NCBI GenBank assembly: GCA_013817655.1
Contig: JACDCJ010000001.1
Location: 1 to 30,000, forward strand
Reading direction: 5' to 3'
Length of the DNA stretch: 30,000 nucleotides
DNA from: Actinomycetota bacterium
GTDB lineage: Bacteria; Actinomycetota; UBA4738
Made by a program: the position numbers and the translations under genes. The notes beneath the pieces were generated by a model, which was not told the DNA's origin, did not search any database, and saw only the letters and a list, made by a program, of their open reading frames with translations. Positions 10,618 through 29,809 of the stretch are shown piece by piece (the stretch's first letter is position 1; the number at the start of each line of letters is the position of its first letter).

Positions 10618-11397
10618 CTACCTCTTCATGATCCGGGAGAACAAGATGGCGAGCTCGTAGAAGATTAGCAAAGGGATCATCATCGCAATCATGGTGAACG
10701 GATCGGCGCTCGGGGTGATGACCGCCGCGAACACTGCGATCACGAGAAGGACGTAGCGGCGCCAGTCGCGGAGCTGCCGGCTGGTCAGGACGCCCACCAT
10801 CGTGAGCGATATCAGGACGATCGGGAACTCGAACGACGCTCCGAACGCGAGGACGATGAGCATCACGAAGCCCACGTACTTGCCGATCGACAGCACCACC
10901 TCGATGCGCTGGTCCCCGGCGAATCCCAGGAGGAAGTTCAAACCGCGCGGGAGCGTGAAGAAGGCGAACCATCCGCCGAGGGCAAACAGGAGCACCGAGA
11001 TGAACACGAACGGAAGCGAGAACTTGCGCTCGCGCTCTGTGAGACCCGGCGTGATGAACGCCCAGAGCTGATACAGCACGACGGGGAGCGCGATCAGCAG
11101 CCCGAGAAAGAGCGTCAGCTTCAGCCGGAGCACAAAGGCCTCCGTGATGCTGAAGATGGCTAGGTCACAGGGGTCCTTCGGGTCGCGCGCGAACTGCGGA
11201 TGGGATCGCATGAAGTCGCAGAAGGGGTTCGTCAGCAGGCGGAACACCGGCCAGTAGAGGAACCACCCGGCGAGCGATCCCCCGACGATGGCGAGCGCCG
11301 AGATGACCAGGCGCTTGCGAAGCTCGCCGAGGTGTTCGACGAGGCTCATGTCGCCGGACCGCTCGCGGCGGCGACGCCGTCGCGGGATCACGGCCAT
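10618..11397 (-). CDS. tatC: Twin-arginine translocase subunit TatC
   Basis: MSLVEHLGELRKRL, YQLWAFITPGL, FEFP, TPSADPFTM. Confidence 0.95.
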   Translation of the reverse strand: MAVIPRRRRRRERSGDMSLVEHLGELRKRLVISALAIVGGSLAGWFLYWPVFRLLTNPFCDFMRSHPQFARDPKDPCDLAIFSITEAFVLRLKLTLFLGLLIALPVVLYQLWAFITPGLTERERKFSLPFVFISVLLFALGGWFAFFTLPRGLNFLLGFAGDQRIEVVLSIGKYVGFVMLIVLAFGASFEFPIVLISLTMVGVLTSRQLRDWRRYVLLVIAVFAAVITPSADPFTMIAMMIPLLIFYELAILFSRIMKR

Positions 11398-11442
11398 TCG
11401 TCAACCTCTGGACGGAGTCCGGCCCGGCGCAGGACCGCCTGC

Positions 11443-11700
11443 CTAGTCGCCGGGAGCCGGCGCCGGAGGTTCGGGGCGCTGCTCCTTCTCGGCTTTGGGT
11501 TCCCCCGCGCTCCCCTTCCGGGCGAACGAGTCGTCGTCGAGGTCGGTCTCGAACTGGTCCCGGAGGTCCATCCCCGCGCGCCTCACCTCGCGGAGGCTCT
11601 TTCCCACCGTGCGCCCGATCTCTGGCAAGCGGCTGGGTCCGAAGACGATCAGCGCGAGCACCAAGATGACGATCAGTTCAGTGGGACCGATGTTGAACAC
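11443..11700 (-). CDS. tatA: Twin-arginine translocase subunit TatA/TatB family
   Basis: MFNIGPTELIVILVLALIVFGPSRLPEIGR. GGGGAG RBS; lies upstream of tatC. Confidence 0.9.
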   Translation of the reverse strand: MFNIGPTELIVILVLALIVFGPSRLPEIGRTVGKSLREVRRAGMDLRDQFETDLDDDSFARKGSAGEPKAEKEQRPEPPAPAPGD

Positions 11701-11729
11701 GCCACTCCCCGAGGCCGGACGGCTGGCGG

Positions 11730-11972
11730 CTACGTGCGGAGTCTAACACCGGCCCCCCGCTCGGACCTGCGCTCTTCGAGCGTCTGGAGCTGTTTCTGCG
11801 CCCGCTCTCCCGCTCGCCGGATCTCCTCGAGCGAGGGCTCCAGGGCGCTCTGAAAATCGCGTGCCGCCCCGGCGAGGATCTTCACGTGGCGGACCAGGGC
11901 GATCACGAGGACCGTCATGATGCCGGCGGTTGCGATGCCGACGACCAGCAGCACGAGGACGACGGCCGACAT
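11730..11972 (-). CDS. Small membrane-anchored coiled-coil protein (80 aa)
   Basis: N-terminal TM helix plus amphipathic helix. TATTCT -10 (11979-11984) lies 6 nt upstream of the ATG. Confidence 0.7.
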   Translation of the reverse strand: MSAVVLVLLVVGIATAGIMTVLVIALVRHVKILAGAARDFQSALEPSLEEIRRAGERAQKQLQTLEERRSERGAGVRLRT

Positions 11973-11984
11973 GGCCGCAGAATA

Positions 11985-13935: not shown

Positions 13936-13943
13936 CCGGCCCG

Positions 13944-13951
13944 ATGATAAT
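13944..13951. promoter_or_regulatory. Overlapping divergent -10 elements (TATCAT for pafB, GATAAT for the nitroreductase)
   Basis: Only 22 bp separate the two divergent start codons. The hexamers lie 8 and 6 nt from their ATGs. Confidence 0.5.
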
Positions 13952-13957
13952 GGCTGC

Positions 13958-14311
13958 ATGGATCCCGGCCTCCCCTTCTGCTATGTCACAAGCACCGGGC
14001 GCCGCACCGGCCGCGCCCATACCATCGAGATCTGGTTCGCGTCGAGCGGCCGAACCCTGTATCTGCTGTCCGGGGGCGGCGATCGGTCGGATTGGGTCCG
14101 CAACATCCGCAAGAACCCGAGTGTTCGCGTCCGGATCGGCGAGGAGACCCACGACGCGCTGGCGAGGATCGTCGAGGACCCCGCCGAAGACGCGATCGCT
14201 CGGCCGCTGCTCGCATCCAAGTACCAGGGATGGCGGGAGGGTCAGCCGCTCAGCTCGTGGGCCCGGACCGCCTTGCCGGTCGCGATCGACCTGCCGGAGG
14301 CGCCGCGATGA
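13958..14311 (+). CDS. Nitroreductase-family deazaflavin (F420)-dependent oxidoreductase
   Basis: VTSTGRRTGRAHTIEIWF and SDWVRNIRKNPSVRVRI split-barrel motifs. Start ATG 13958. Confidence 0.85.
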   Translation: MDPGLPFCYVTSTGRRTGRAHTIEIWFASSGRTLYLLSGGGDRSDWVRNIRKNPSVRVRIGEETHDALARIVEDPAEDAIARPLLASKYQGWREGQPLSSWARTALPVAIDLPEAPR

Positions 14312-15426
14312 TCCGGCTACGGCGAGGCCGGGTCCTTCGGATCGTGGAGCAGCGGGCCGGCGCCGTGGAGCTGGCCGTCGAGGTGGAGGGGCATGAGGCG
14401 CGAGCCCTCGCCTATCCCGATCTGGTGGGTCCCGTCCCGGTCGGAAGCCGTGTGGTGCTGAACACGACGGCCGTCGCCCTCGGCCTGGGTACGGGCGGGC
14501 TGCACTTCGTGGTCGCCGTCGAGGACGGACCGGATGTGGACTCGCCGTCGCGGGGTCGAACCATGAAGCTCCGGTACACGCCGTTGCAGCTGCAGACCGA
14601 GGTGGTCGAGGAGACCAGCGGCGCGCGGGAGGCTATGGCCGGCGGCGAGAGCCTGGCCGGGACGCCGGTGGTGTGGGTGCCGCTGCATTCCCTGTTGGGC
14701 CCGGTAGCCGCCGGAGCGGTCGCTGCAGGGGCGAAACGGGTGGCCTACGTCATGACCGACGGAGCCGCCCTGCCGGCGGCGCTCTCCCGCCTCGCGGCCG
14801 CTCTCCGCTCCACAGACCTCCTCGGGGTGGTCGTCACCGCCGGGCAGGCCTTCGGCGGCGACCTCGAGGCCGTGAACGTGTTCTCCGGGCTTCTTGCCGC
14901 TAGTCACGTGACCGGTGCGGACGTAATCGTCGTCGGCGACGGACCCGGCAACACCGGAACGGACACGAAATGGGGCACGACCGCCGTGGCGTCGGCCATG
15001 TCGCTGAATGCCGCCGCCATTCTCCTCGGGCGGCCCGTCGCCGCGCTGCGGATCAGCTTCGCCGATCGCCGCCGGCGCCACCGGGGCGTGTCACACCATT
15101 CCCTGACGGCTCTCCGGAGCGTGGCGCTCGCTCCGGTCCATGTCGCCATCCCCGCCCTGGACGACGCCGATCAGCGGGAGGCCGTCTGGAGCGCGCTGAA
15201 GGACGCGGCCCTCGAGGACCGCCATCAGTTGGTGGAGGTCACCGGACACCCGGCGCTGGAGGCGCTCGAAGGCGCCGGGATCGAGCCGGAGTCCATGGGC
15301 CGGGGCATCTCCGAGGACCCCGCGTTCTTCCTGGCCGGTGGCGCGGCCGGCGTCCTTGCCGGCAGGATGGCCGCTCGCAGCGCGGGCTGGCAGCCGGATG
15401 CCCCCACAGCGGATCCGGCAGGATAG
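14308..15426 (+). CDS. DUF3866 family protein
   Basis: VVLNTTAVALGLGTGG, MKLRYTPLQ, LHSLL, YVMTDGAALP, GQAFGGDLEAVN, RRHRGVSHHS. ATGA overlap with the upstream stop. Confidence 0.82.
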   Translation: MIRLRRGRVLRIVEQRAGAVELAVEVEGHEARALAYPDLVGPVPVGSRVVLNTTAVALGLGTGGLHFVVAVEDGPDVDSPSRGRTMKLRYTPLQLQTEVVEETSGAREAMAGGESLAGTPVVWVPLHSLLGPVAAGAVAAGAKRVAYVMTDGAALPAALSRLAAALRSTDLLGVVVTAGQAFGGDLEAVNVFSGLLAASHVTGADVIVVGDGPGNTGTDTKWGTTAVASAMSLNAAAILLGRPVAALRISFADRRRRHRGVSHHSLTALRSVALAPVHVAIPALDDADQREAVWSALKDAALEDRHQLVEVTGHPALEALEGAGIEPESMGRGISEDPAFFLAGGAAGVLAGRMAARSAGWQPDAPTADPAG

Positions 15427-15438
15427 CCCCGAGTCGTC

Positions 15439-15804
15439 TCATCCCCGCCCCAGCTCTTCGAGGCGCTCGTCCGAGATGCCGAAGAAGTGGGCGAACTCGT
15501 GGATCAGCGTGTCGCGAACCGCTTCCTTGAGGGTCGTCTCGTCGGCGCCGGCCTCCCGCTCGATGTTCCGGCGGAAGAGCGTGATTCGATCCGGCAGCAC
15601 CCCCGAGTAGTTCATGCCGCGCTCCGTAAGCGGAATGCCTTCGTAGAGCCCGAGCAGGTCGCGGCGGCCATGCGGGGGGTCGTCCTCGATGAGCACCTCG
15701 ACGTTGTCGAGCCGTTGCTGCACCCAGTTCGGGAGGGAATCGACGGCCTCCCCGACCAGGTCTTCGAAGCGTTCGCGCCGATCGCGTATGACGAGACTCC
15801 TCAC
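15439..15804 (-). CDS. Zinicin-like metallopeptidase family protein
   Basis: [30 protein letters not shown] (HExxH). GTGA overlap with the pafA stop. Confidence 0.88.
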
Positions 15805-17159
15805 ATGTGGGCGATCAGTTGCTCCACGCGTTCGTCCACGGATTTGAACGGGTCCTTGCAGAGCACCGTCCGCTGGGCCTGATCGTTCAGCTTCAGGTGC
15901 ACCCAGTCGACCGTGTAGTCGCGCCGCTTCTGTTTTGCCGAGCGGATGAACTCGCCCCGGAGCCGCGCCCTCGTGGTCTGCGGGGGTTCGCGCATGGCCT
16001 TCTGCACGCGCCGGTCCGAGATGACGCGTTCCATGAGTCCTCGTCGCTCCATGACGTAGTAGAGGCCCCGGGAACGGTTGACGTCGTGATAGGCGAGGTC
16101 CATGAGGGCGATCCGGGGATGGGACAGCGGGAGGCCGTGCATCGACCTGTACCGGTCGATGAGAGTCCGTTTGGCGACCCAATCGACCTTCCTCGCCAGC
16201 CGGTGCGACTCCCCGGCGGCGAGCGCTTCGAGCGCGCTCCCCCACTCCGCGAGGACCCTCGAAGACGTCTGGTCGGCACCCCGGCGTTCGATGAAGCGCA
16301 CCGCGCGGTCGTAGTACTCCATCTGTATTTCGATCGCGGAGAGCTCCCGCCCCGTCGCCAGGCGGACCTTCTTCTTGCAGGCCACGTCGTGAGACACCTC
16401 GCGGATGGCGCGGATGGGGTTCTCGAGAGTGAGATCCCGCATGACCGTGTTCTCCTCGACCATGCGGACCACGAGGTCCGTCACGCCGATCTTGAGGAAC
16501 GTCGTGAACTCGCTCATGTTCGAGTCGCCCACGATGACGTGCAGGCGGCGGAAGCGCTCCGCATCGGCGTGCGGCTCGTCCCTGGTGTTGATTATCGGAC
16601 GTGACCGCGTGGTCGCGGAGGAGACCCCCTCCCAGATGTGCTCCGCGCGCTGTGAGATGCAGAACTGAGCGCCGCGAGGGCCCAGTAGGACTTTCCCCGC
16701 TCCGCAGTAGATCTGGCGGGTCACGAAGAAGGGAATCAGGACGTCGGCGATGCGCGCGAACTCCCCCTGCCGGGCCACCAGGTAGTTCTCGTGGCATCCG
16801 TACGAGTTGCCCGCCGAGTCCGTGTTGTTCTTGAAGAGGAACACGTCGCCGGAGATGCCCTCCTCGTGGAGGCGAACCTCGGCCGCGGCCAAGAGCGCCT
16901 CGAGGATCCGCTCACCGGCCTTGTCGTGCGCGATCAGGTCGAGGACGGTGTCGCACTCGGGCGTCGCGTACTCGGGGTGCGAGCCGACGTCGAGGTAGAG
17001 GCGGGCGCCGTTCTCCAGGAACACGTTGGACGACCGGCCCCAATGGACCACTCGCCGGAACAAGTAACGGGCCACCTCGTCCGGCGAGAGACGGCGCTGC
17101 CCGCGAAACGTGCAGGTGACGCCGTACTCGTTCTCCAGGCCGAAGATCCGGCGGTCCAC
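15801..17159 (-). CDS. pafA: Pup--protein ligase
   Basis: [52 protein letters not shown]. Confidence 0.97.
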
Positions 17160-17165
17160 GAGGCC

Positions 17166-17171
17166 AGTCTA
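17166..17171 (-). promoter_or_regulatory. -10 element TAGACT, probably giving a leaderless pafA transcript
   Basis: TAGACT-GGCCTC-GTG with no SD sequence. Confidence 0.6.
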
Positions 17172-17208
17172 GGCGGCCCCGTGCGACGACCGAACGGGAG
17201 TCGCCTAG

Positions 17209-17400
17209 TCAGGCGGCCAGCCCCACCAGGAGGTCGCCCTTCATCCTGATTACGTGGGTTGTTGAGAAGAAGAAGTATTCACCTTCGGGAAGCCCGTCGA
17301 CCTCGTAGGTCATCATTCCGAGCCGCCGATCGTGTCCCCGTCGAAGAGGAAGTCATCGAAATCGGGGTTGGGCGGCCAGGAGGACGAGCAACGATACAGC
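17209..17400 (-). pseudogene. Decayed cupredoxin/plastocyanin-like gene remnant
   Basis: Two frame-shifted segments: ...PDFDDFLFDGDTIGG and, from 17316 to 17209, MMTYEVDGLPEGEYFFFSTTHVIRMKGDLLVGLAA*. This resembles the cupredoxin C-terminal GxYxFxCxxHxxMxGxLxV motif with Cys replaced by Ser. Confidence 0.4.
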
Positions 17401-17417
17401 GGCGGCGCCGCTCCGTG

Positions 17418-18131
17418 TCATGGCGGCGGCTTCCCGCCTTCGACTGAGCTCGACGACAGTATCTCGGCAACCTCCGAGTCGTCCAGCCTCCGGAACTTGC
17501 GGCGCCCTCGCGTCCGGTCCATGACGGCCGCTTCGAGCTTCGGCGCGTCGATCGGCCGGTCCTCGGTGTCCGACAGCGCCTTCGCCGCCAGCCGGACGGC
17601 TCCCTCCAGGGATTCGCCGGCTCGGTAGGAGTCGCGCAGATGGCCGGTGAGCTCATCGGAGCGGCCGCCCATGCCGACGAACCCCTTCTCGTCTGCGACG
17701 CTGCCATCGAACAGGATGTGGAACAGCTCGTTCTCCTCCGGTCGTTCTCCCACCTGGCCCACCAGGATCTCGACCTCATACGGCTTCATCTGCGTGGTGA
17801 AGATCGCGGAGAGCGCCTGTGAATAGGCGTTGGCGAGCGTCTTGGCCGTCACGTCCTCTCGCCCGTAGGAGTACCCCCGAAGGTCCGCGAGGCGGACGCC
17901 GGAGATGCGCAGGTCCTCGAACTCGCTGTACTTGCCCACCCCCGCGAAGGCGATCCGATCGTAGATCTCCGAGATCTTGTGCAGGGTCGAGCTGGGGTTC
18001 TCCGCGAGGAACAGCAGCCCGTCCGCGTACTCGAGCGCGACGACCGACTTGCCCCTGGAGATGCCCTTTCGGGCGTACTCGGACCGGTCCTTCATGAGTT
18101 GCTCGGGCGGCACGTACGGCTGAAACGACAT
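17418..18131 (-). CDS. prcA: 20S proteasome alpha subunit
   Basis: YVPPEQLMKDRSEYARKGISRGKS, KISEIYDRIAFAGVGKYSEF. ATG 18131 overlaps the prcB stop. Confidence 0.96.
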   Translation of the reverse strand: MSFQPYVPPEQLMKDRSEYARKGISRGKSVVALEYADGLLFLAENPSSTLHKISEIYDRIAFAGVGKYSEFEDLRISGVRLADLRGYSYGREDVTAKTLANAYSQALSAIFTTQMKPYEVEILVGQVGERPEENELFHILFDGSVADEKGFVGMGGRSDELTGHLRDSYRAGESLEGAVRLAAKALSDTEDRPIDAPKLEAAVMDRTRGRRKFRRLDDSEVAEILSSSSVEGGKPPP

Positions 18132-18988
18132 CAGTCGGGGTCTTCCTTCGCCTGGCTTCCCCCGCCAACGACGCCCTCGTGGGTCTCGCCGACGATGGTC
18201 TGGAAGGCCGCCCGAACCTCGTCTTCGGGCACGATCTCGACGCCGGCGGCGGTCATGGCCTTGACGGACGGGTAGATGCCTCGAAGGGGGTTCGGGCCGC
18301 CCGTGGCAACGTCCTCCTGCGAGGCGTCGTAGAGGGCCTCTACGGCGAGCTGGACCGCGGCGGTGCGCTCGAGCCCCCGCCGCCATCCCTTCTTCAAGGT
18401 GCCGCGAGCGTGAAGCGATCCCGACCCCGTGGAGTGGTAGTCCGCCTCCTCCCACCTCCCCCCGGTCACGTCGTAGCGGAACAGGCGTCCCTCGGCGCGT
18501 CGCTCGTCGAACCCGCCGAACAGGGGCACGACCACCAGCCCCTGCAGGGCCATTGGGAAGTTCCCGCGGATCATCTGGGCGAGGCGGTTGGCCTTGCCCT
18601 CCATCGACAGCCTCTCGCCCTCCACCTTCTCGTAATGCTCCAGCTCCGTCTGGAACAGACGGACGATCTCGGTGGCCTGCCCGGCGGCTCCCGCGATGGC
18701 TACCGCCGAATGCTCGTCGGCGGGAAAGACCTTCTCGATTCGCTCATCGGCGATCGTGAACCCCTCCACCGCGCGCCGGTCGCCGGCCATGATGACGCCG
18801 TCGGCGTACTTCAGGGCCAGCACGGTCGTCCCGTGCGAATAGGTCGCCGCGGGCTGCTCCCCGTGGCTCTGGACGGGGGGGGGCGATCCCGGGGCGTCCG
18901 GGGCAGAGCCGGCCACCAGGTCGGCGAAGCTCGGGTTGGATCCAAAGAGGAAGGGGCGGCCACCCGGCCCGGCGCCGAGCCCCGTCAC
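18131..18988 (-). CDS. prcB: 20S proteasome beta subunit (propeptide plus catalytic Thr)
   Basis: HG|[22 protein letters not shown] overlap with pup. Confidence 0.96.
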
Positions 18989-19185
18989 TCCCCGCCCTTC
19001 TGGACGTAGGACTTCACGAACTCCTCGGCATTCTCCTCGAGGACGGAGTCGATCTCCTCGAGGATGTCGTCCATCTCCTCCTTGAGCTTCTCGCCCTTCT
19101 TCGTCGCCTCGACCTGGCCCCCTTGATTCCCGGCCTCACCGCCGGACTTCCGCTGGACGCGTTTCTGTTCGTGTTCTTGAGGCAA
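18985..19185 (-). CDS. pup: Prokaryotic ubiquitin-like protein Pup (ends in GGE)
   Basis: [31 protein letters not shown] start after a GGAAGGAG RBS. Confidence 0.96.
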
Positions 19186-19230
19186 CCGCTCGCTCCTTCC
19201 GTCGTCCCGCCTTCGGCGCGGGGCGAACCC

Positions 19231-19236
19231 ATTCTA
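19231..19236 (-). promoter_or_regulatory. TAGAAT -10 element for pup-prcBA
   Basis: Near-consensus hexamer in the dop-pup intergenic region. Confidence 0.55.
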
Positions 19237-19249
19237 TTGCCCGCAGGAG

Positions 19250-20734
19250 CTACGCCTGGAGCGCGGCGATGAGTGCGGGGGCGTCGGCCGAGGCCTCCAG
19301 GATGTGTTCCACGTGCGCCTTCGTCCCACGCAGTGGCTCCCGCAGCGGGATCCGTTGCAGGGCATCCTTGCCGGTGTCGAAGATTATGGAGTCCCAAGAC
19401 GCGGCGGCGATCGAGTGCGCGTAGCGGGCGACGCACCGTCCCCGGAAGTAGGCGCGCGTGTCCTCCGGAGGTTCGACGACGGCTCGCTCGATCTCCTCGT
19501 CCGTCGTGAGACGTTCGACCTTTCCCGCTCCGGCCAGGCGGTGGTAGAGCCCCCGGCCACGGCGGACGTCGTGATACTGGAGGTCGATCATGGCGAGTTT
19601 CGCATCGCGCCAGTCAAGCCGGTCGCGCTCGCGATAGGCCTCCAGAAGCCGGAACTTCGCCACCCAGTCGAGCTCCCGGTGGAGGGAAAGGGGCTCCTCC
19701 TCGATGCCGGCGAGGACCGCCTCCCACCAGGCGAGCACCTCGGCGTTCTCGGGGGTCGCCTCGGCCTCCTTGACGAACTTCTTCGCGTGGTCCAGGTACT
19801 CCCACTGAAGCTCCAGGGCACGGATCCGACGCCCGTCTCGGAGGCGCACGAGCTCCCGGCAGGAAGGGTCTCTCGAGACGGCGTGCAGCGCCGGCACCGG
19901 CTCCTCCAGTGAAAGGTCGGGCAGGAGCTCGTCCTCGATCATCTTGAGGACGATGGCGGTGGTGCCGACCTTCAAGAAGAGGGCGACCTCGCAGAGGTTC
20001 GCGTCGCCCCCGATGCAGTGGAGGCGCCGGTACTTCTCAGGATCGGCGTGAGGCTCGTCGCGCGTGTTGATTATCGGCCGCTTGAGCGTCGTCTCCAGGC
20101 CGACCTCCGCTTCGAAGAAGTCCGCTCGCTGGGAGATCTGGAAGGGAATCCGGCCCCCGTCCGCCCGGGAACCTTCCGTGCCAACCTTCCCCGCACCCGT
20201 GAAGATCTGGCGTGTCACGAAGAAGGGAGTCAGGTCACGCACGAGCCGGGCGAACGGCAAGCTGCGAGCCACCAGATAGTTCTCGTGGCAACCATAGGAG
20301 TTTCCCTTGCCGTCCGTGTTGTTCTTGTAGATGGACAGGCGCTCGCCGGGTGGCAGGAGATCGGCCACCGATGCGAGGGACCGCTCGAGGATCCGCTCTC
20401 CGGCCTTGTCGTGCACGACGAGCTCCCGGGGCGTCGCACACTCCGGCGTTGAGTACTCCGGGTGCGCGTGGTCGACGTAGTACCGAGCTCCGTTCGTAAG
20501 GATGACATTGGCCAGCCCGAGATCCTCTTCCGTCGGCTGGCGCTCCTGCACCGGCTCGAAGCCCCGTGCATCGCGAAGCGGCGATTCCTGCTCATAGTCC
20601 CACCGGATGCGGCGCAGGTCGCCCGCGTAGGAGTTGATCAGCATGGAGGAGGCGAGGACCGGGTTGAAGTCGCCGTGAGCCGAGCTCGAGATGCCGTACT
20701 CGGTCTCGATGCCCATCACTTTGGGAATGGCCAC
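19250..20734 (-). CDS. dop: Depupylase/deamidase Dop
   Basis: [51 protein letters not shown]. Confidence 0.96.
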   Translation of the reverse strand: MAIPKVMGIETEYGISSSAHGDFNPVLASSMLINSYAGDLRRIRWDYEQESPLRDARGFEPVQERQPTEEDLGLANVILTNGARYYVDHAHPEYSTPECATPRELVVHDKAGERILERSLASVADLLPPGERLSIYKNNTDGKGNSYGCHENYLVARSLPFARLVRDLTPFFVTRQIFTGAGKVGTEGSRADGGRIPFQISQRADFFEAEVGLETTLKRPIINTRDEPHADPEKYRRLHCIGGDANLCEVALFLKVGTTAIVLKMIEDELLPDLSLEEPVPALHAVSRDPSCRELVRLRDGRRIRALELQWEYLDHAKKFVKEAEATPENAEVLAWWEAVLAGIEEEPLSLHRELDWVAKFRLLEAYRERDRLDWRDAKLAMIDLQYHDVRRGRGLYHRLAGAGKVERLTTDEEIERAVVEPPEDTRAYFRGRCVARYAHSIAAASWDSIIFDTGKDALQRIPLREPLRGTKAHVEHILEASADAPALIAALQA

Positions 20735-20788
20735 GACCCTCGGTCCCTTCCGTTGGGGCCGCCGGCGTCCTGGCGCCGGCCATGGAGC

Positions 20789-22555
20789 CTAGAGGTACTG
20801 TCCGGCGTTGATCCGCTCCACCTGACGGCCTTCCGCGTGTCCCTGGCCGAGAAGGGTTCGGACGAAGACGATCCGCTCGCCCTTCTTTCCCGAAATGCGG
20901 GCCCAGTCGTCCGGGTTCGTCGTGTTGGGGAGGTCCTCGTTCTCTTTGAACTCGTCGCGGATCGCGCTCAGGAGGTCCTCGAGCTTCAGCCCCTTCTCGC
21001 CGTGCTGGAGGAACCGCTTGATCGCCATCTTCTTCGCCCTGGCGACGATGTTCTCGATCATCGCCCCCGAGTTGAAGTCCTTGAAGTAGAGGATCTCCTT
21101 GTCGCCGGAGGCGTAGGTGACCTCGAGGAACCGGTTCTCGTCCGACGCCGCGTACATCCTCTCCACCGTGGTATCGATCATCCTCCGAACGACGCGGTCC
21201 GGTCCGCCACCTGCTCGAACGTCCTCATCGTGGAGCGGGACGTCGGAAGTCAGGTACCGGCTCATGATCTCCTGTGAGGCCTGCGCGTCGGGCCGCTCGA
21301 TCTTGATCTTCACGTCCAGCCGCCCCGGACGCAGGATGGCCGGGTCGATCATGTCCTCGCGGTTCGATGCTCCGATCACGATGACGTTCTTGAGCGTCTC
21401 CACACCGTCGATCTCGGAGAGCAGCTGCGGAACGATGGTGTTCTCGACGTCGCTCGAGATGCCGGAACCGCGCGTGCGGAACAGAGAGTCCATCTCGTCG
21501 AAGAACACGATCACGGGGAAGCCTTCCGCCGACTTCTCCTTCGCGCGCTGGAAGATCAGGCGAATCTGCCGCTCGGTCTCGCCGACGTACTTGTTCAGGA
21601 GCTCCGGTCCCTTGATGTTGAGGAAGTACGAGTGCGCCTGCTTCTGGCCCGTCTTCTCCGCCACCTTCTGGGCGAGCGAGTTGGCGACCGCCTTAGCGAT
21701 GAGCGTCTTCCCGCAGCCGGGCGGACCGTAGAGCAGGACGCCCTTGGGTGGCTTGAGGCGGTGCTCCTCGAACAACTCGGCGTAGAGAAACGGGAGCTCG
21801 ACCGCGTCGCGGATGTCCTCGATCTGGGAGGACAGGCCGCCGATGTCGTCGTAGGTGATGTCGGGGATCTCCTCCAGGATGGCCTCCTCGACCTCCTCCC
21901 TGGGGAGCTTCTCGAGAGCGTAGCCGGAGCGCGGGTCGAACAGCACCGGGTCTCCGGCGCGCACCTGCCCCCGGACTGACATCGAAAGGAGGGCCACCGC
22001 CTCCTCGTCCCCTCGGCCAACGACGACGGCTCTGTCCTCCCCGAGCAGCTCCTTGACCGCCATGACCTCGCCGGTCACCTCCTCGTCGAGAACAGCCACC
22101 ACGTTGAGTGCCTCGTTCAGGATGACCTGGACGCCCTTTCGGAACGTGGAGCGGTCGAGCGTGGGATCGGCGTTCACCCGCATCTTCCGCCCGGCGGTGA
22201 CCACGTCGAGCGAACCGTCGTCGTTCCCCTCCAGGAAGACACCGAACGTCGCCGGTGGTCGGGTGAGCTTGTCGACCTCCTCCTTGAGGGCCTCGAGCCT
22301 TTCGCGCTCGGCGCGAAGGACGCTCGCGAGCTTCTCGTTCTGGCCCACCGCCCGCGCCAGGTCGGACCGAGCCGCCTGCAGCTGGTCCTCGAGCACGCGC
22401 ACATGACGCGGCGAGCTCGAGAGCCTGCGCCGAAGCAGCGCGATCTCGTCCTCGAGGAACTTGATCTGCGTTTGCAGCTGATGGATGTCTTTTTCGTAGC
22501 GCTCGAGCAGCTCCTCAGAATCCCGAGCACCCGGGTCTCGCGCCATGACTACCAC
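20789..22555 (-). CDS. arc: Proteasome AAA+ ATPase (ARC/Mpa)
   Basis: N-terminal coiled coil, [22 protein letters not shown] and the C-terminal GQYL docking motif. Confidence 0.97.
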
Positions 22556-23474: not shown

Positions 23475-24629
23475 TCAGCCGGTTGTGGGAAGGGGGCGGG
23501 TCCCAAGCGTGACCGAGACCGCGAAACGACCGCGGGCGTCGTTCACCAACTCGATCTCGACCTCGTCGTCGGGCTCTCGGGCGAGGATGAGCTCGCCAAG
23601 TTGCTCGGAGCCCTGGATCGACTCACCCTCAAAGGCCACGATCACGTCCCCCGGTTCGATGCCCGCGCCCTGCGCCGGCCCGCCCGGCGCCACATCGATC
23701 ACATAGGCACCGCGATCGACGGGCAGTCCGAACTGGGCGGCGACTCCGGCGTCGACGGTCGTGGTGGTCACGCCCAGGTAGGCGGCCGGCGCCTCCGGAT
23801 CAGCGATGGCACGCTCGATGAAAGGCCTTGCGGCGTTGATGTCGATGGCGAAGCCGATGTTCTCGGCCTCCCCAGCCCCGGCCGTGTTGATACCGACCAC
23901 GTTGCCGGCGAGGTCGACCAGTGGGCCACCGGAGTTTCCGGGATTGATTGGCGCATCCGTCTGCAGGACGTCCTCGAGCGTTCGGACGATCCCCTGTCCG
24001 TCCTGCCCGCCGCCCGGGTCCTGGATCTGAACGGTGCGCGCCAGGGAGCTGATGATCCCGGACGTGACGGAGGGACCACCCGGCAGGGCGAGGGCATACC
24101 CGAGGGCGACCACGCGCTCGCCGAGGGCGACCGAATCGGAGTCCCCGAGCGGCACCGTGGGGAGGTCCTGCTCGTCCACCTTCAGGACGGCCAGGTCGTG
24201 GTCGGAATCGCCGCCGATCACACGCGCCTCGAAGTTCCTGCTGTCCGGCGGCGGGAGGGTGACCATGATGCTGGTGGCTCCCTCGACGACATGGAAGTTG
24301 GTCACGATGATTCCGTCGGACCGGATGATGAATCCGGTCCCCACCCCCTCACCCCCATCGCCGCCGAAGATGGCGTCCCGGCTCTGGGTACGGGTGGTCA
24401 CGTTCACCACGGACGGGGCGACGCGATCCACCACGGTCACCACGGGGTCCTGCGACGGATCGTAAGGGTTGATCGACGGAAGGAGGGGAGTGCTCCTCGG
24501 CTCGGCCACGCGGGCCACCCGGGCGGCGGCGCTGCAGCCGGAGAGGATCAGCGCGGCGACGATGGAGGTCGCAACCAGCCTTGCCGAGCGCCCGGAGGCT
24601 CCCACGGTGCTCGTTCCATCCACCTTCAT
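23475..24629 (-). CDS. htrA: HtrA/DegP-like trypsin protease with PDZ domain, predicted lipoprotein
   Basis: VTNFHVV, DHDLAVLK, INPGNSGGPL triad plus PDZ domain. LSGC lipobox. TATGAT lies 7 nt before ATG 24629. Confidence 0.9.
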   Translation of the reverse strand: MKVDGTSTVGASGRSARLVATSIVAALILSGCSAAARVARVAEPRSTPLLPSINPYDPSQDPVVTVVDRVAPSVVNVTTRTQSRDAIFGGDGGEGVGTGFIIRSDGIIVTNFHVVEGATSIMVTLPPPDSRNFEARVIGGDSDHDLAVLKVDEQDLPTVPLGDSDSVALGERVVALGYALALPGGPSVTSGIISSLARTVQIQDPGGGQDGQGIVRTLEDVLQTDAPINPGNSGGPLVDLAGNVVGINTAGAGEAENIGFAIDINAARPFIERAIADPEAPAAYLGVTTTTVDAGVAAQFGLPVDRGAYVIDVAPGGPAQGAGIEPGDVIVAFEGESIQGSEQLGELILAREPDDEVEIELVNDARGRFAVSVTLGTRPLPTTG

Positions 24630-24637
24630 AGCATCGA

Positions 24638-24657
24638 TCATACGAAGGCACGTATGA
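24638..24657 (-). promoter_or_regulatory. Inverted repeat TCATACG-N6-CGTATGA overlapping the htrA -10
   Basis: Perfect 7-bp arms, seen directly. Operator role is inferred. Confidence 0.5.
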
Positions 24658-24764
24658 AACGCGGCTGAGGAAGTTCGGCGGGGTGTTGCGCTCCTGTGAC
24701 GACGGACGCTCGGTGGAACCGGTGACCGTTTCGTGGTGGATGCAGCCGCTCGGCGATGCCCGCC

Positions 24765-24983
24765 TCAGCGGCGGATGACGGCGGCCCACAGCTGCAGGGC
24801 GAACCCGACGAAAAGCAGGCTCGAGCCGATCAGGTACGCGACCTTCTCGCGTCGGTGAGCGGCATCGCTCGGCCCCGAATAGTCGCGATTGCCCCTGACG
24901 ATCGACAACGCCCCGAGGGCGAAGGCGGCGGCCCCGGCAAGGGCCAGCCCGAGGCCGATCAGCGTTAGTTGGTGGGCGTTCAC
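24765..24983 (-). CDS. Small two-helix membrane protein (72 aa)
   Basis: MNAHQLTLIGLGLALAGAAAFALGALSI...YLIGSSLLFVGFALQLWAAVIRR. TAGTGT -10 lies 7 nt before the GTG. Confidence 0.7.
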   Translation of the reverse strand: MNAHQLTLIGLGLALAGAAAFALGALSIVRGNRDYSGPSDAAHRREKVAYLIGSSLLFVGFALQLWAAVIRR

Positions 24984-25005
24984 GCCGCGAACACTACACG
25001 GTCCG

Positions 25006-25027
25006 TGCGGTCGCACGCGAAACCGCA
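25006..25027 (-). terminator. GC hairpin after the MauA-like gene (possible terminator)
   Basis: UGCGG(UU)UCGC-GU-GCGA-CCGCA stem. No U-tract. Confidence 0.3.
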
Positions 25028-25062
25028 AGCCAACCGGTGCATGTCCGTCTGATGATCCTCCG

Positions 25063-25467
25063 TCAAACGCCTTCCGCCGCGAGCTCCGTGAGCGTCGGCG
25101 CACAACTGCGGGTGGTTCGGCAGCCACACACGCAGAGCGTGCCGCTCGTGTCACTGACGCAGTCCCTGCACAGGAAGAGCCGGTCACCCTCCAGGCAGCA
25201 GCCCCACGTGTACCCGTTGTACGACCACCCGTCGGGACACAGCTGCCTCGCCCCCCCGTCGCAGTTGCAGGTGACGCCGATGGATCGGCAGGCCGTGCCG
25301 ATGCAGCACTTTGGGTCGGCCGAGGCCGTTTGCGCAAGTACCACCTGCCCAACGCCCAGGCCCGCGAGAACCGCCGACATCTTGGCAAGGAAGCCCCTGC
25401 GTGAGGTCTTTCGATACACGATGCCGGTGCCCTTCTCCACGAGGTCCCGGGTCTGCCGATCGTCCAT
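25063..25467 (-). CDS. Tat-exported, 14-Cys methylamine dehydrogenase light-chain (MauA)-like small protein
   Basis: SRRGFL Tat motif, ASA cleavage site, then C-x5-C-x6-C-x-C-x-GG-x4-CP-x-G-x7-W and RDC, matching the MauA N-terminal half as I recall it. GGAGAG RBS. Confidence 0.72.
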   Translation of the reverse strand: MDDRQTRDLVEKGTGIVYRKTSRRGFLAKMSAVLAGLGVGQVVLAQTASADPKCCIGTACRSIGVTCNCDGGARQLCPDGWSYNGYTWGCCLEGDRLFLCRDCVSDTSGTLCVCGCRTTRSCAPTLTELAAEGV

Positions 25468-25524
25468 GTCCTCTCCATTCTCTCCGCGTTCCGATCAACG
25501 AATGAGCGGCGCTCAGGCCGCGGC

Positions 25525-26283
25525 TCAGGCTCCCACCGCGGCTGCGACGGCGGCACCAAGCACCGCGAAGGTGAGCGTGGTCGAGAGCGCACGCCAAAGC
25601 GGGCCCCGATCCAGACCCCAGAGGACGGGGCCCAGAGAGCCCTCTGTGCCCGCGTTAGCCAGAATCACGGCGGACAGCCCGCGTGCCGCGCCGTACGTCC
25701 CAAGGACCGCAGCGCCGGTGGCCGCGTCGCCGAGGAGTGCGGCCCCGGCCAGGACCACCACGTACCCCGCGTTCGCCACGCGAGTGCCCACCCCCGGCCC
25801 GAGAAGCGCGCCGTAAAGGGCGGCAGTGACCACCGGAGGGTACCGGTAACGCCATGCAGCGGGTACCTGGCGCCCCGATCGGGGCAGGGGAAGGCGGACG
25901 AGCCCGAGCTCCATCGCGCCGTAGCAGGTGGTGACCAGGGCGAGCAAGAGAAGCCGATCCGGCCCGGCCAGCACCAGCAATCCCCCGACGGATCCCACCG
26001 CGAGGCCGGTGAGAGCCCCCGCGAGCGTGGCCGCGACGGCGTGCGCGATGCCCGCGCCCGCTCTGGTCGCCGCGGAACCCCGGACCAGGGTCCCCACCAT
26101 GGACGCCCCTCAGGGCGACGCCAGACTGATGAGGCCCTGGGCGGCGGCGCTCACCGCAACGGCCACCGGCACGAGGGACACCGTTCCAGCGCCGACGGCC
26201 AGAGCGCCCGCAAAGGCGCCCGCCCCGGCGAGCAGCATCATCGCGGGGACGATCCGCCGGCGCGCGACAACCGTGGCGCTCAT
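25525..26283 (-). CDS. MauF/CcdA-like membrane protein with predicted selenocysteine (in-frame TGA at codon 58, 26110-26112)
   Basis: ATG 26283 overlaps the mauD stop (ATGA) and is in frame with the track ORF 25525-26100. Reads ...GLISLASP-TGA-GASMVGTL..., against the MauF STWSPCGYSS motif. C-terminal YGALLGPGVGT. Confidence 0.78.
26072..26097 (-). promoter_or_regulatory. Candidate bacterial SECIS element
   Basis: Stem GGGACCC/GGGUUCC (26094-26088 paired with 26080-26074) closes the loop UGGUCCG, which begins 22 nt after the UGA and contains GGUC. Confidence 0.65.
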
Positions 26284-26876
26284 GACGCCGAGCTCACGGA
26301 GTCGCCCTCCACCCAGACCGCACCCTCTCCCGTTCGAACCCGCCCCTGGATGAGGGAGGAGACCATCTCCCGGTTGTTAACCACTCCACGGCTCCGGACG
26401 ACCCCTGCGGTGTCGACCAGGATGGCCCGCGGCGTGGTGACGATGCCCACCGCTCGCATCGCGGCCCCATCGTCTTGCCACGCCTGGCCGGCGAACCGGG
26501 ACCGGTCGAGCATCGCTCGGGCCTCCTCCGCCGGCCCGGACAAGACCGGAACGATGGCGTGGTCGGGCCAATCCTTCACGACCCCGTCGAGCTCCGAGAG
26601 GAGGTCGGCACACAACGTGCACCGGGTGGACATGAATAGCACTACGGCCGGGCGGCTCCCGAGGTCGGGCGACGAGGGCCGGCCCGATCTGGCATCGGCC
26701 AGGCGCAAGGCCGGGAGGGTCGCCCCCGGCTCCATTCCCTCGAGCGACTCCAGCGCAGGGGCTGCCGGCAGGCGGCGACTGAGCAGACCCACCTCTCGAG
26801 CCAGGGCGAGGATCGCGAGCGCCTCGACGATCGCGAGGATCGCCAGCGCGGCGACGGCGATCCACAGGGCGGTCAC
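26280..26876 (-). CDS. MauD-like membrane-anchored thioredoxin-fold protein
   Basis: N-terminal TM helix, REVGLLSRR, CTLC (CxxC), TPRAILVD, RSRGVVNNREMVSSL. GTG 26876 overlaps the mauE stop (GTGA). Confidence 0.82.
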   Translation of the reverse strand: MTALWIAVAALAILAIVEALAILALAREVGLLSRRLPAAPALESLEGMEPGATLPALRLADARSGRPSSPDLGSRPAVVLFMSTRCTLCADLLSELDGVVKDWPDHAIVPVLSGPAEEARAMLDRSRFAGQAWQDDGAAMRAVGIVTTPRAILVDTAGVVRSRGVVNNREMVSSLIQGRVRTGEGAVWVEGDSVSSAS

Positions 26877-27457
26877 GCGTGCTCCTCGTGAGCGCGGATC
26901 CCGGTCTCGACAGTCGTCAAGAGACGGAGCGCGGCCACGGCAAGGGCGCCCGTGGCGAGGGCGGCAGCGGAGACGATGGCCACCGCGGTCGCCTCGGAAC
27001 CGGAAATCGAAAGAGGTAACGTCGAGCCCCGATCGGTGCCCAGGTGGAAGACGAGCGCCACTGCCGCTAGGCCGAGCAGCCCGATGGTTCGGGCCACGGC
27101 CGCGCCATCGATACGCTCGCCGCGGGAGGCGCCGAAGCACGCACAGGAGGCATCCAGACGGAGGTGTAGGGCCCGGATCAGGACGAGTGCGAACCCAAGG
27201 AGCAGCAACACTGCGGTCGCAAGCCCCACCGTGAGGAAGCGCGACAGCATGGCCGCGGCGGAAGCGATCTCGAGCACCGGCAGAGCCCGTGCCCCCGCCG
27301 GAACCGCCCACCTGAGCCGGACCGGAACTAGGTTACGGGCGGTTTCGACGAAGCCGGCCATATCCCTGAGCTTCGCGATTCCCGCAAGGCCGAGCACCAC
27401 GGCGAGGATCAGGCGAGCGGCCTGCAGAAGCAGCCGATCGACCTCCGACACTTCCAT
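26873..27457 (-). CDS. MauE/DoxX family redox-associated membrane protein
   Basis: LGLAGIAKL, LPVLEI, SCACFG (CxCFG motif), four hydrophobic helices, GGAGG RBS. Confidence 0.87.
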   Translation of the reverse strand: MEVSEVDRLLLQAARLILAVVLGLAGIAKLRDMAGFVETARNLVPVRLRWAVPAGARALPVLEIASAAAMLSRFLTVGLATAVLLLLGFALVLIRALHLRLDASCACFGASRGERIDGAAVARTIGLLGLAAVALVFHLGTDRGSTLPLSISGSEATAVAIVSAAALATGALAVAALRLLTTVETGIRAHEEHA

Positions 27458-27482
27458 CCCAACCTCCCACGAGGCGCCCCCG

Positions 27483-27517
27483 CTCCGCGCGCGGAGAGGC
27501 GGACGGAACTATATCCT
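27483..27517. promoter_or_regulatory. Divergent promoter region (TATAGT for the mau-like operon, TATCCT for the LLM gene) with a 14-bp palindrome
   Basis: Overlapping hexamers at 27508-27513 (-) and 27512-27517 (+). CTCCGCGCGCGGAG at 27483-27496. Confidence 0.45.
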
Positions 27518-27543
27518 GGCCCCTTCCGTTCTGGAGGTCGCTC

Positions 27544-28377
27544 GTGCGATTCGGCCTGGACGTCGCGCAACACCAGCAGGCGTGGGGAGGGATACTCGAG
27601 CGCGCTCGTTTCGCGGAGGATGCCGGGTTCGACGGCTGCTGGGTCTTCGACCACTTCAAGGCCCTCTATGGCGACCCCGTGGGTCCGTGTCTGGAGGGAT
27701 GGTCACTGCTCGCCGGGCTCGCCGCGGGAACATCGAGGATCCGCCTGGGCGCCCTGGTGACCGGGGCGACCTACCGGCATCCCTCCATCCTCGCGGCCCA
27801 GGCGGTGACCGTCGATCACATCTCGGGTGGGCGGCTCGAGCTCGGCATCGGCGCCGCCTGGTTCGAACGCGAACACGTCGAGCTCGGCATCGACTTCCCC
27901 GGGGTCCGCGAGCGCGGTGAGCGGCTCGACGAAGCGGTCCAGGTCATCCGGTCTCTGATGACCGGTGAGCCCGCGTCGTTTCAGGGGAGGCACTACCAAC
28001 TCCGCAACGCCGTATACCGGCCCCAACCAGTCCAGCAGCCGACGCCTCCGATCTGGATCGGCGCGGGAGGCGAGCGGATGATGCTTCCCATCGTCGCTCG
28101 CCGGGCGGATGTGTGGCACGGGTTCGGGCCCGCAGCGGAGATGCGGCGCAAGTCGCTGATAATCGACCGCCACGCCGAAGCGGCCGGTCGAGATCCCTCG
28201 GAGATCGGGCGCTCGTCGTCCCTGTCCATATCGGAGCCGTGGCACGCCGTCCATCGCAGGGCCGAGGACCTCGCCGGCTCGGGCTTCAACTACCTGATCG
28301 TGTCCTGGCCGTCGGAAGGCCGGGCGCGACTCGAGGAGTTCATCTCCGACGTCATGCCCGACCTCGGTGGCCTGTAG
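27544..28377 (+). CDS. LLM-class (probably F420-dependent) oxidoreductase
   Basis: WVFDHF, LGALVTGATYRHPS, TVDHISGGRLELGIGAAW, PPIWIGAGGE. GGAGG RBS. Confidence 0.9.
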   Translation: MRFGLDVAQHQQAWGGILERARFAEDAGFDGCWVFDHFKALYGDPVGPCLEGWSLLAGLAAGTSRIRLGALVTGATYRHPSILAAQAVTVDHISGGRLELGIGAAWFEREHVELGIDFPGVRERGERLDEAVQVIRSLMTGEPASFQGRHYQLRNAVYRPQPVQQPTPPIWIGAGGERMMLPIVARRADVWHGFGPAAEMRRKSLIIDRHAEAAGRDPSEIGRSSSLSISEPWHAVHRRAEDLAGSGFNYLIVSWPSEGRARLEEFISDVMPDLGGL

Positions 28378-29060
28378 GCCGTAACGAAGAACCCCCGGAC
28401 GCGCCGCTCCCCCTCCACATAAGCGATCTCCCGGTGAGCGGGTGGCTCGCCAGGGTCGAAGGCCAATCGAATCGAGTCGTCGTCGGGGTGGTTCGGGTCG
28501 TATACCAGGACATGAACCCACCCGCTGGCCTCGTCGAGGTCGTACCCGTAGGCGAGCGCCTGGTGGTTCCGCGCCATCGTCCATGGGCTGATCGAACGAA
28601 CGCGGACCAGCCCGAGGGGACAGAGGCGGCCGGCGTCGACCTCATTCCGCACCCGCGGCCACTCCCTCCGGATCGTTCTCGAGGTCGCGCCACGGACAAC
28701 CCAGGCGTCCCCATCCGGGAGCATCGACCACGCGAAGTAGCGCAGGACGCCGAAAGGGAGACCCCAGCTCGAGAACAGCCGGCGGACCAGGTAGGGGAAC
28801 AGTGGCGTGCCCCGGGTTGGGGCCGTGGCGACCGCCGGAGGCAGACGTCCCGCTTCGAAGATGTCTCGGGCCGCGAAGACCATGCCGCCGCACAGGCCCC
28901 TAGAGGCGTTCCCGACCGGCAGGCGCAGCCCGGCCAACCTGAGCTCGGCGACCGGTGCCTTGGAGAAACGGTTCGGAAAATGGAACCCCGAACGGCTGGG
29001 GAGGAAGCCCGGCACCCGCGCGCTGACCACCTCCGGAAGTATCTCGCGTGGAGATTCCAT
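28290..29060 (-). CDS. Hypothetical protein with papain-like Cys-His-Asp motifs (start uncertain)
   Basis: GLCGGM, NHQALAY and VYDPNHP occur in catalytic-triad order. Overlaps the 3' end of the LLM gene by 88 nt. Confidence 0.62.
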   Translation of the reverse strand: MESPREILPEVVSARVPGFLPSRSGFHFPNRFSKAPVAELRLAGLRLPVGNASRGLCGGMVFAARDIFEAGRLPPAVATAPTRGTPLFPYLVRRLFSSWGLPFGVLRYFAWSMLPDGDAWVVRGATSRTIRREWPRVRNEVDAGRLCPLGLVRVRSISPWTMARNHQALAYGYDLDEASGWVHVLVYDPNHPDDDSIRLAFDPGEPPAHREIAYVEGERRVRGFFVTAYRPPRSGMTSEMNSSSRARPSDGQDTIR

Positions 29061-29122
29061 GAGAAGGATGGGGCCTGCGGCGATCCTCGGACGGTTCTGT
29101 CGCTCCGATCCCATAATGTCCC

Positions 29123-29809
29123 ATGGAATTCGAGATGCGGACTGGCGGCTCAGCCCGCGGGAAGTGCCGATGGATGGCTGCTGCGGGCATGGCCGTCGCC
29201 GTCGTTCTCGCCTCATGCGGAGGGACCAGCGGATACACCTTCGTGCGCAGCTCCGAGACCGACGCGTTCTTCAAGGTGCCGAGCGATTGGGAGCGCTTCA
29301 ACAAGAAGGAGATCCTCGTGGCGGTGGATCTGAGCGATTCGCCGGGGGCGAACGAGGGCTTCAAGTTCCTGGAGGCCTACGACGCCGCGCCGGATCCCTC
29401 GATCGACCACGTTATTGGAGCGGAGCTACCGAATTTCCCGGTCGTTCGCGCAGAGGTCCGCCAGCTCACCCCGGTGACACGCGACCGGATGTCGCTCCAG
29501 TCCATCCGCAACGCGCTGTTCCCGATCGACGAGCTCTTCCAGAACGACCAGGTAGACGTCCTTGCCGAGGAGGACGTGGTGCTCGATGGGGGGGTCCATG
29601 GGCTGCGGCTGGACTACAACCTCTCCCTCGCGGGAAACCTCACGGCGGTGGCCGGCAACCAGATCCTCCGGGTGACCCAGATCGGCCTGGTGGACCCCGC
29701 CACGAACCTCTTCTACCTCTTCTGGGTTCAGTGCACGGCGGACTGCTTCCAGCAGCATCAGCGCACGATCGACCAGATCGTGGATTCCTACACCGTGAAG
29801 GAGCAGTGA
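29123..29809 (+). CDS. Hypothetical lipoprotein
   Basis: Basic n-region, hydrophobic h-region, LASC lipobox and a well-formed globular remainder. Confidence 0.75.
   Translation: MEFEMRTGGSARGKCRWMAAAGMAVAVVLASCGGTSGYTFVRSSETDAFFKVPSDWERFNKKEILVAVDLSDSPGANEGFKFLEAYDAAPDPSIDHVIGAELPNFPVVRAEVRQLTPVTRDRMSLQSIRNALFPIDELFQNDQVDVLAEEDVVLDGGVHGLRLDYNLSLAGNLTAVAGNQILRVTQIGLVDPATNLFYLFWVQCTADCFQQHQRTIDQIVDSYTVKEQ

Follow-up and report, generated by a model that had tools for sequence, protein, structure and literature searches.

The locus considered here raises the question of what a protein does when it keeps the Trp and Asp of a quinone site and lacks the Trp to which the quinone Trp is cross-linked. 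The gene, at 25063-25467 of the window (the whole stretch of DNA that was analysed, 30,000 nucleotides long), encodes a small Cys-rich protein, P0001, that resembles MauA, the TTQ small subunit. An earlier note, made from the sequence, had called it MauA-like. It had suggested either a non-canonical cofactor, from a Cys-Trp or a W81-W88 cross-link, or a cofactor-less, disulfide-stabilised secreted or RiPP-like product. We asked whether P0001 is related to MauA, and which of these readings best fits the gene, its relatives and its neighbours.

The gene and its product

The following features belong to the gene, its product and its likely export:

25063..25467, minus strand: MauA-like gene, an ATG-started ORF whose translation is P0001 (134 aa)
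Residues 1-50 of P0001: Tat leader, with RR at 23-24 and the ASA cleavage site at 48-50
Mature domain of P0001: 84 aa, with 14 Cys, Y86-T87-W88 and R101-D102-C103
Residues 125-129 of P0001: C-terminal TxTEL tail
10618..11397, minus strand: TatC (PF00902, E = 2.8e-65), outside the operon

A ribosome-binding site (GGAGAGG) is located 3 nt 5′ of the ATG, and the GC3 of the gene is 0.84. Compared with the copy at L002 in a soil Actinomycetota MAG, which is 95% identical, the gene differs synonymously at 22 codons and non-synonymously at 7 (pN/pS = 0.11). The gene is real and purifying selection acts on it; the ORFs that overlap it on both strands are the usual artefacts of high GC content. A scan of 24500-27700 revealed neither a sigma-70-like promoter nor an intrinsic terminator. 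The public sequencing runs listed for the locus were all DNA, from soil and sediment; none was RNA.

The leader has TSRRGFLAK, then a hydrophobic stretch and ASA, followed by DP, and so shows the features of a Tat signal (S/T-R-R-x-F-L-K, hydrophobic region, AxA cleavage site). Its score with TIGR01409 was 15.9 bits, slightly below the cutoff of 16.7. TatC is a component of the translocase that is required for exporting proteins with twin-arginine leaders. Translation confirmed the earlier count of 14 Cys after ASA. They are at positions 54, 55, 60, 67, 69, 77, 90, 91, 100, 103, 112, 114, 116 and 122. The core stops at C122, 8 residues past the equivalent of C86-x-C88 of MauA.

Some observations concern the surroundings of the gene. 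A Pup-proteasome neighbourhood (10618-22555) adjoins the cassette and comprises an ARC/Mpa ATPase, a Dop/PafA-like protein, WYL regulators of the PafB/PafC type and TatC. At about 24765-24983 on the minus strand, the C-terminal 70-odd residues of a spurious ORF (24765-25592) resemble a genuine small membrane protein with two helices (VNAHQLTLIGLGLALAG...LLFVGFALQLWAAVIRR). This candidate sits between the MauA-like gene and a gene for an HtrA-like protease (23475-24641). The 308-aa ORF at 28290-29216 had no family match.

Sequence likeness to MauA

In the HMMER alignment of P0001 with the MauA precursor of Paracoccus versutus (3c75_L), CRSIGVTCNCDGGARQLCPDGWSYNGYTW pairs with CSIDGNICDCSGGSLTNCPPGTKLATASW without gaps and CRDCV pairs with YRDCC. 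The gapless register up to Trp57 that the earlier note had drawn was thus reproduced from C60 to W88, and so was the match of R101-D102-C103 to R75-D76-C77. W88 and D102 align to Trp57 and Asp76 in phmmer, hmmsearch and hhalign alike, and they are the only residues other than Cys and Gly that are conserved with MauA. The spacing from D102 to C112-x-C114 equals that from D76 to C86-x-C88.

The alignments with MauA end at C86-x-C88. Equivalents of Trp108-Cys109 and Tyr119-x-Cys121-Thr122 are absent from P0001, and no Trp occurs downstream of W88, as the earlier note had stated for Trp108. Among true MauA proteins, the W, C, Y, C and T of this C-terminal segment are invariant. In MauA, C78 is the partner of C109; Val104 replaces C78 in P0001, a change in keeping with the loss of the stretch that holds Trp108-Cys109. 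The position of Asp32 is also changed, being occupied by Ile63. This replacement, too, had been seen before. However, most of the true PF02975 proteins retrieved have Gly or Ser there, and the loss of Asp32 is therefore not diagnostic.

Searched alone against the PDB, P0001 matched 3c75_L with E = 0.034, and a profile of 20 family members matched it with E = 8e-5 (leader included). The second PDB match of the profile was tachycitin, a chitin-binding peptide (E = 0.043). In a database of 5.8e9 proteins, the profile picked up P0029, which is a true PF02975 protein (E = 7.6e-4). By hhalign, 27 family members aligned with 22 MauA proteins over 98 columns (probability 97.8%, E = 1e-12), with W88 in register with the TTQ Trp, D102 with the Asp of DCC and C112-x-C114 with CxC. 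When the mature proteins were compared without their leaders, the probability was only 1.8% (E = 0.028, 18 columns), still in the correct register (CPxG...W). The MauA signal at the sequence level thus sits almost wholly in the leader, and the score of the full-length proteins is not usable as evidence for the mature domain. The leader that the family shares with MauA is itself unusual, and the sharing extends upstream of the RR motif.

The established family models gave the same picture. No match to PF02975 was found for P0001 and 20 relatives, and with TIGR02659 P0001 reached 12 bits (cutoff 197), all of it from the leader. Neither the Pfam nor the NCBIfam MauA model reached the mature part in any of these proteins. 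A PF02975 scan of the genome did not match the 25063-25467 ORF either. A weak match elsewhere in the genome (L001) was rejected as spurious, as it lies inside an NhaA-like membrane gene. A feature-based search of a protein atlas with P0001 returned no usable match. The HMM search against the light-chain family, which had been suggested as a check, was therefore negative, and by these profile comparisons P0001 falls outside PF02975.

Predicted fold

Two template-free AF2 models of P0001 were built from alignments that held no MauA sequence. The mature part of the full-length model had a pLDDT of 73-93, and the mature-only model had a pLDDT of 78.6 and a pTM of 0.65. Each model was aligned against all 48,161 PDB representatives. 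For both, rank 1 was 2agl_D, the small subunit of aromatic amine dehydrogenase (Z = 4.7 and 5.0; 3.0-3.1 A; 63-67 residues; 19-21% identity), and rank 2 was 3c75_M, the MADH light chain (Z = 4.1 and 4.4). Both are TTQ small subunits, to which the structure-based identity was 17-21%; the next row had a Z of 3.2-3.4 and an identity of 2-9%. A Z of 4-5 is low in absolute terms. Still, going by the predicted models, it is very unlikely that the TTQ small subunits topped the list twice by chance. This ranking is evidence for MauA relatedness that is independent of the leader.

Other structure searches were less clear. Foldseek found no match below E = 0.1 in the PDB for either model, and in a search of 2.3 million AFDB clusters rank 1 was a 'methylamine dehydrogenase light chain' at E = 0.02. 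The structural comparison that the earlier note had proposed is thus divided, with the top two ranks in favour and the small Z values (4.1-5.0) and the Foldseek result against. Its description of P0001 as MauA-like was supported by the family profile and the fold ranking, and not by the mature sequence alone, whose score is not significant. In the models, strands predicted at 81-92 and 96-105 pair up as a hairpin. By the strand register of the predicted secondary structure, Y86, W88 and D102 would lie on one face of it.

These data also bear on the idea that P0001 is not homologous to MauA at all, and is a Cys-rich secreted or RiPP-like peptide with a convergent Cys pattern that borrowed a MauA-type leader for a shared MauE/MauD/MauF machinery. 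The mature-only probability of 1.8% and the lack of any match from Pfam or Foldseek would fit this idea. Other Cys-rich proteins encoded at the position between MauD and MauF have only the leader in common with MauA, and Streptomyces clusters with mauE/mauD and unrelated peptides of at least 8 Cys have been proposed to be RiPP-like (PMC7794033). However, two independent models from alignments without MauA both placed TTQ small subunits at ranks 1-2 of 48,161, with an identity well above that of the other rows (17-21% against 2-9%), and W, D and the CxC motif are in register. We thus regard convergence as quite unlikely, and homology of P0001 to MauA as probable, with good confidence.

Residue conservation in the family

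The family is rare: 1.84 billion proteins yielded 17 representatives (at 50% identity), and a word index supplied a few more. A search from a 4-sequence alignment revealed one true relative (L002) and three proteins with fused lectin or repeat domains. A profile search of 401 Actinomycetota genomes found matches in 51 of them, most of which involved nothing but the leader. Two unpublished genomes, G001 (the source of locus L021) and G048, are counted in these figures, and no claim made here rests on these two alone. Three stretches of a 3465-aa protein, P0012, also match the family profile (E = 2e-10).

In 27 members, C55, C90, C100, C103 and C122 are invariant and C54, C60, C67, C77 and C91 are nearly so. 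W88 was kept in 25 of the 27 relatives and D102 in 23, with Glu in two more, so that the proposed correspondence to Trp57 and Asp76 was borne out both in position and in conservation. The position of Y86 has Tyr in most members and Trp in six. Comparatively, W81 is Trp in only 12 of the 27. The suggested test of conservation in homologs therefore favoured W88 and D102 but not W81, and a W81-W88 cross-link is unlikely.

The number of Cys is even in all 27 mature domains (10, 12, 14 or 16), which fits complete disulfide pairing as far as sequences can tell. This parity, together with cassettes that carry no maturase, disfavours the proposed Cys-Trp cross-link. C69 and C116 were gained or lost together across the relatives, and their co-occurrence suggests a disulfide that is absent from MauA. 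Two members, P0014 and P0015, lack Y86, W88 and D102, all three together. They form one subclade, and their loci lack MauF. The co-loss is a single phylogenetic event and provides a single contrast.

The length of the C-terminus varied among the members. About 11 of the 27, all of them long forms, have a TxTEL motif after the last Cys that is predicted to be helical. The short forms end at the last Cys, and the core ends at C122.

The MauE/MauD/MauF cassette

The MauA-like gene is the last of four minus-strand genes in the order MauE, MauD-like, MauF-like, MauA-like. The three upstream genes are as follows:

26873..27457, minus strand: MauE-like membrane protein (PF07291, E = 1.5e-20, 74 bits), with a CxC-F-G motif (CACFG)
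26280..26876, minus strand: MauD-like membrane-anchored thioredoxin-fold protein with C-T-L-C (TIGR02661, E = 1.3e-11, below cutoff; also Thioredoxin_2 and AhpC-TSA)
25525..26283, minus strand: MauF-like or DsbD_2-like membrane protein, with an in-frame UGA at 26110-26112 (SP-U-G), recognised by read-through translation and tblastn

The MauD-like gene overlaps both of its neighbours, the stop of MauE with its own GTG start (GTGA) and the start of MauF with its own stop (ATGA). MauF is also split in relatives, into gene pairs of 48-61 aa and 189-221 aa (L006, L008, L012, L013 and the P0009 contig), and the pairs at the first four of these loci give weak DsbD_2 matches.

The order E-D-F-A of the window was also found at L013, at L012 and on the P0009 contig, E-D-A-F at L008 and D-A-F at L006/L007. 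The P0014 and P0015 operons have the order ABC_tran-MauE-MauD-A-FtsX, without MauF. The synteny of the cassette thus recurs around relatives that are only 25-40% identical, and we count it as evidence both for relatedness to MauA and for a client relation between P0001 and the other three proteins. The canonical order, found on plasmid pNL2, is large subunit-MauE-MauD-light chain (B-E-D-A).

Additional genes were seen beside some of the cassettes. At L010, L011 and L014, the family variant without Y86, W88 and D102 is located between a gene for an ABC ATPase and a gene for an FtsX-type permease of 914-917 aa; these loci have MauE and MauD and lack MauF. A further conserved gene accompanies the cassette at L008 (2991-3575), L012 (840-1343), L007 (3376-3855) and L030 (4392-4772, minus strand). 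Its product has the motif CVxTRFxL...YRRxR...CYxLSxW...HVxAxR and no Pfam or PDB match; with one query, it was not found in G000. We also considered the luciferase-like monooxygenase at 27544-28377 (plus strand) as a maturase and rejected it, since it is divergently oriented and, at the other loci inspected, does not neighbour the cassette. One such monooxygenase occurs about 7.7 kb from the cassette at L008.

Searches of G000 (74% complete) and of four genomes that carry relatives, G122, G176, G094 and G144 (92-99% complete), revealed neither MauB (PF06433) nor MauG (PF03150). As a positive control, the PF06433 search recovered the heavy chain of pNL2 (E = 1.8e-42). No gene for a flavoprotein maturase or for another Trp-quinone maturase was found in any cassette examined.

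A signal-peptide beta-propeller of the YVTN type, P0032 (1l0q, E = 2e-5), is encoded at L006 (9924-11021) and L007 (3989-5086). It lies directly downstream of the cassette of a distant member, P0028, and an ECF sigma factor gene lies upstream. P0032 is possibly an analogue of the heavy chain, in the P0028 lineage only, and no homologue of it was found in G000. It could be supposed from this propeller, and from the incompleteness of G000, that P0001 still works as the smaller partner in a two-subunit enzyme whose large subunit is encoded elsewhere or has diverged too far to be recognised. We consider this highly improbable. PF06433 was unmatched in five genomes with a working control, the propeller was seen in only one of about nine contexts and not in G000, and the C-terminal third of MauA is missing from P0001.

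Could W88 alone carry a new cofactor, such as 7-hydroxy-Trp or a tryptophylquinone that is not cross-linked? It would be installed by MauE, MauD and a selenocysteine-containing MauF without MauG, with D102 helping as Asp76 does in MADH. W88 and D102 are conserved at 25-40% identity, where little besides Cys is kept, and P0014 and P0015, which have no MauF at their loci, have jointly lost Y86, W88 and D102. Cofactor proteins are typically exported by the Tat pathway. In addition, preMADH already has 7-OH-Trp57 before MauG acts, and the source of this hydroxyl is unknown (review PMC11951088). The co-loss with MauF would indeed fit a functional modification of Trp. However, it represents one phylogenetic event, and an Asp-Trp pair that is hydrogen-bonded for structural reasons predicts the same pattern. 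All known tryptophan quinones are cross-linked and require MauG, QhpG or LodB/GoxB (PMC11951088), and no such gene was found in the cassettes or the five genomes. No gene for an electron acceptor is present either, and the same W...DC hairpin occurs in the lectin-fused relatives, which are unlikely to be enzymes. A cofactor made from W88 alone is therefore unlikely.

In its boldest form, this idea would make the four-gene module the minimal machinery for MauG-independent biogenesis of a Trp cofactor. MauE, MauD and the selenocysteine-containing MauF would both fold the knot and hydroxylate or oxidise W88, aided by D102, to give a mini-quinoprotein or a 7-hydroxy-Trp protein. We regard this form as distinctly improbable. 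If it were true, the first oxygen on Trp57 of MADH, whose source has long been unknown, would be traced to this module, and a function could be assigned to MauF.

Relatives with a shared leader or fused domains

Three loci encode Tat-exported proteins of Acidimicrobiales with an N-terminal Cys-rich domain (L003, 7740-9008; L004, 7818-9332; L005, 7017-8771). In hhalign, this domain scored 94% with MauA and 96.6% with the P0001 family (leader included). It retains GGWW...IDC and occurs in fusion with ricin-type lectin domains or with repeats of other kinds. Downstream of it, L003 and L004 have a weak MauF-like tblastn match.

A second group of Cys-rich proteins, about 175-185 aa long, was found at L026 (1486-2022), L027 (544-2073) and L028 (1144-2013), and also at L022 and L025. 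Only the MauA-type leader is common to them and MauA (hhalign, 34 columns), and they carry a W-x-x-CC...I-x-DCC motif. The gene lies between MauD-like and MauF-like genes at L022 and L028 and has a MauD-like gene upstream at L025 and L026; at L027, neither neighbour is present.

Patches of aromatic residues and Asp are typical of sugar-binding sites. The Tyr-Trp-Asp patch of P0001 might accordingly be an exposed, putative binding site, and P0001 a small module that binds carbohydrate or the cell wall, or a disulfide-rich antimicrobial peptide. Besides the composition of the patch, the fusion of related domains to ricin-type lectin domains, the tachycitin match (E = 0.043) and the subclade between ABC_tran and FtsX genes seem to agree with such a role. 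However, the tachycitin match does not rise above noise and reflects Cys content, and the subclade beside the transporter genes is the very one without the Tyr-Trp-Asp patch. We find this specific role very doubtful.

Proposed role of P0001

Taken together, the reading that we favour, with a confidence only a little better than even, is that P0001 belongs, in shortened form, to the fold superfamily of MauA, the TTQ small subunit, and no longer works for a dehydrogenase. It would be a cofactor-less client, with seven disulfides, of its own thiol-redox cassette. The cofactor-less, disulfide-stabilised secreted or RiPP-like product that the earlier note had listed last is thus a better reading than its cofactor proposals. 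The C-terminal third (Trp108-Cys109, Tyr119 and Thr122) is absent and C78 has become Val104, and therefore TTQ cannot form and P0001 is not a subunit of an amine dehydrogenase.

MauD is a thioredoxin-fold intermediary. MauE complements DsbB and acts as a DsbB-like disulfide generator, with a CxC followed by Phe-Gly (bioRxiv 10.64898/2026.03.05.709764). In our proposal, the precursor of P0001 would be targeted by its twin-arginine leader of the MauA type, of which the conserved stretch before RR is a part, and cut after ASA. The co-transcribed module would then oxidise the 14 Cys to form seven disulfides. MauE (CxC), as a disulfide generator linked to quinone, would hand disulfides to the membrane-anchored MauD (CxxC). 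The CcdA/DsbD-like MauF, with a putative selenocysteine at the single conserved Cys position, may provide reducing power for proofreading or isomerisation. We infer these roles on P0001, as well as the pairing of its Cys.

The product would be a three-stranded beta-sheet knot of roughly 72 residues, equivalent to the MADH light chain without its C-terminal third. Y86, W88 and D102 would form a hairpin face inherited from the TTQ site. The patch could serve as a structural Asp-Trp pair, bind a ligand or be a site of MauG-independent Trp modification. It is most likely a structural or ligand-binding keystone of an extracytoplasmic protein that presumably bears no cofactor.

If this is right, the MauA fold is not confined to amine dehydrogenases but also occurs by itself, in an exported mini-protein overlooked by current family models. 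MauE has been judged a generalist, as MauA detectable by InterPro occurs in only 10% of MauE-bearing species (bioRxiv 10.64898/2026.03.05.709764). Cryptic MauA-like clients beside MauE, MauD and MauF weaken this inference for Actinomycetota. With one small client and three helpers, the family is also a minimal system for probing how MauE, MauD and MauF act, and it could reveal a role of the Trp57 and Asp76 equivalents that is independent of TTQ.

Comparison with known systems

Small Cys-rich proteins are also found in quinohemoprotein amine dehydrogenase, whose CTQ gamma subunit, QhpC, has a modified Trp. Its cysteines form thioethers through a radical-SAM enzyme. We found no sequence or fold match between QhpC and P0001. 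Unlike QhpC, P0001 has an even number of Cys, and its locus has no QhpD, QhpE or QhpG.

In Streptomyces, decRiPPter identified mauE/mauD clusters with peptides of at least 8 Cys as candidate RiPPs (PMC7794033). They are similar to the present locus in that MauE, with or without MauD, stands beside a small Cys-rich precursor (at least 8 Cys); no other mau genes occur there. However, those precursors are 57-66 aa long and have no twin-arginine motif, and no relation to MauA was shown for them (PMC7794033).

The closest comparison is with MauA/AauA (PF02975, TIGR02659; 3c75 L/M, 2agl D). Like them, P0001 has a long twin-arginine leader in which conservation extends upstream of RR, as well as CPxG...W and xDC in register with Trp57 and Asp76, and CxC at the spacing of C86-x-C88. 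Its gene likewise sits beside mauE, mauD and mauF, and going by the models it may share their disulfide-knotted beta-sheet fold. On the other hand, P0001 is about 45 residues shorter, without Trp108-Cys109, Tyr119 and Thr122, and has Val in place of C78. Its 14 Cys are probably paired differently (C69 with C116) from those of MauA, whose disulfides include 23-88, 29-61, 36-121, 38-86 and 46-77. Its locus has no mauB, mauG or amicyanin gene, and the Pfam and NCBIfam models fall short of it. What is new here is that a minimal Cys-rich client is tied to the TTQ site at the level of both residues and fold.
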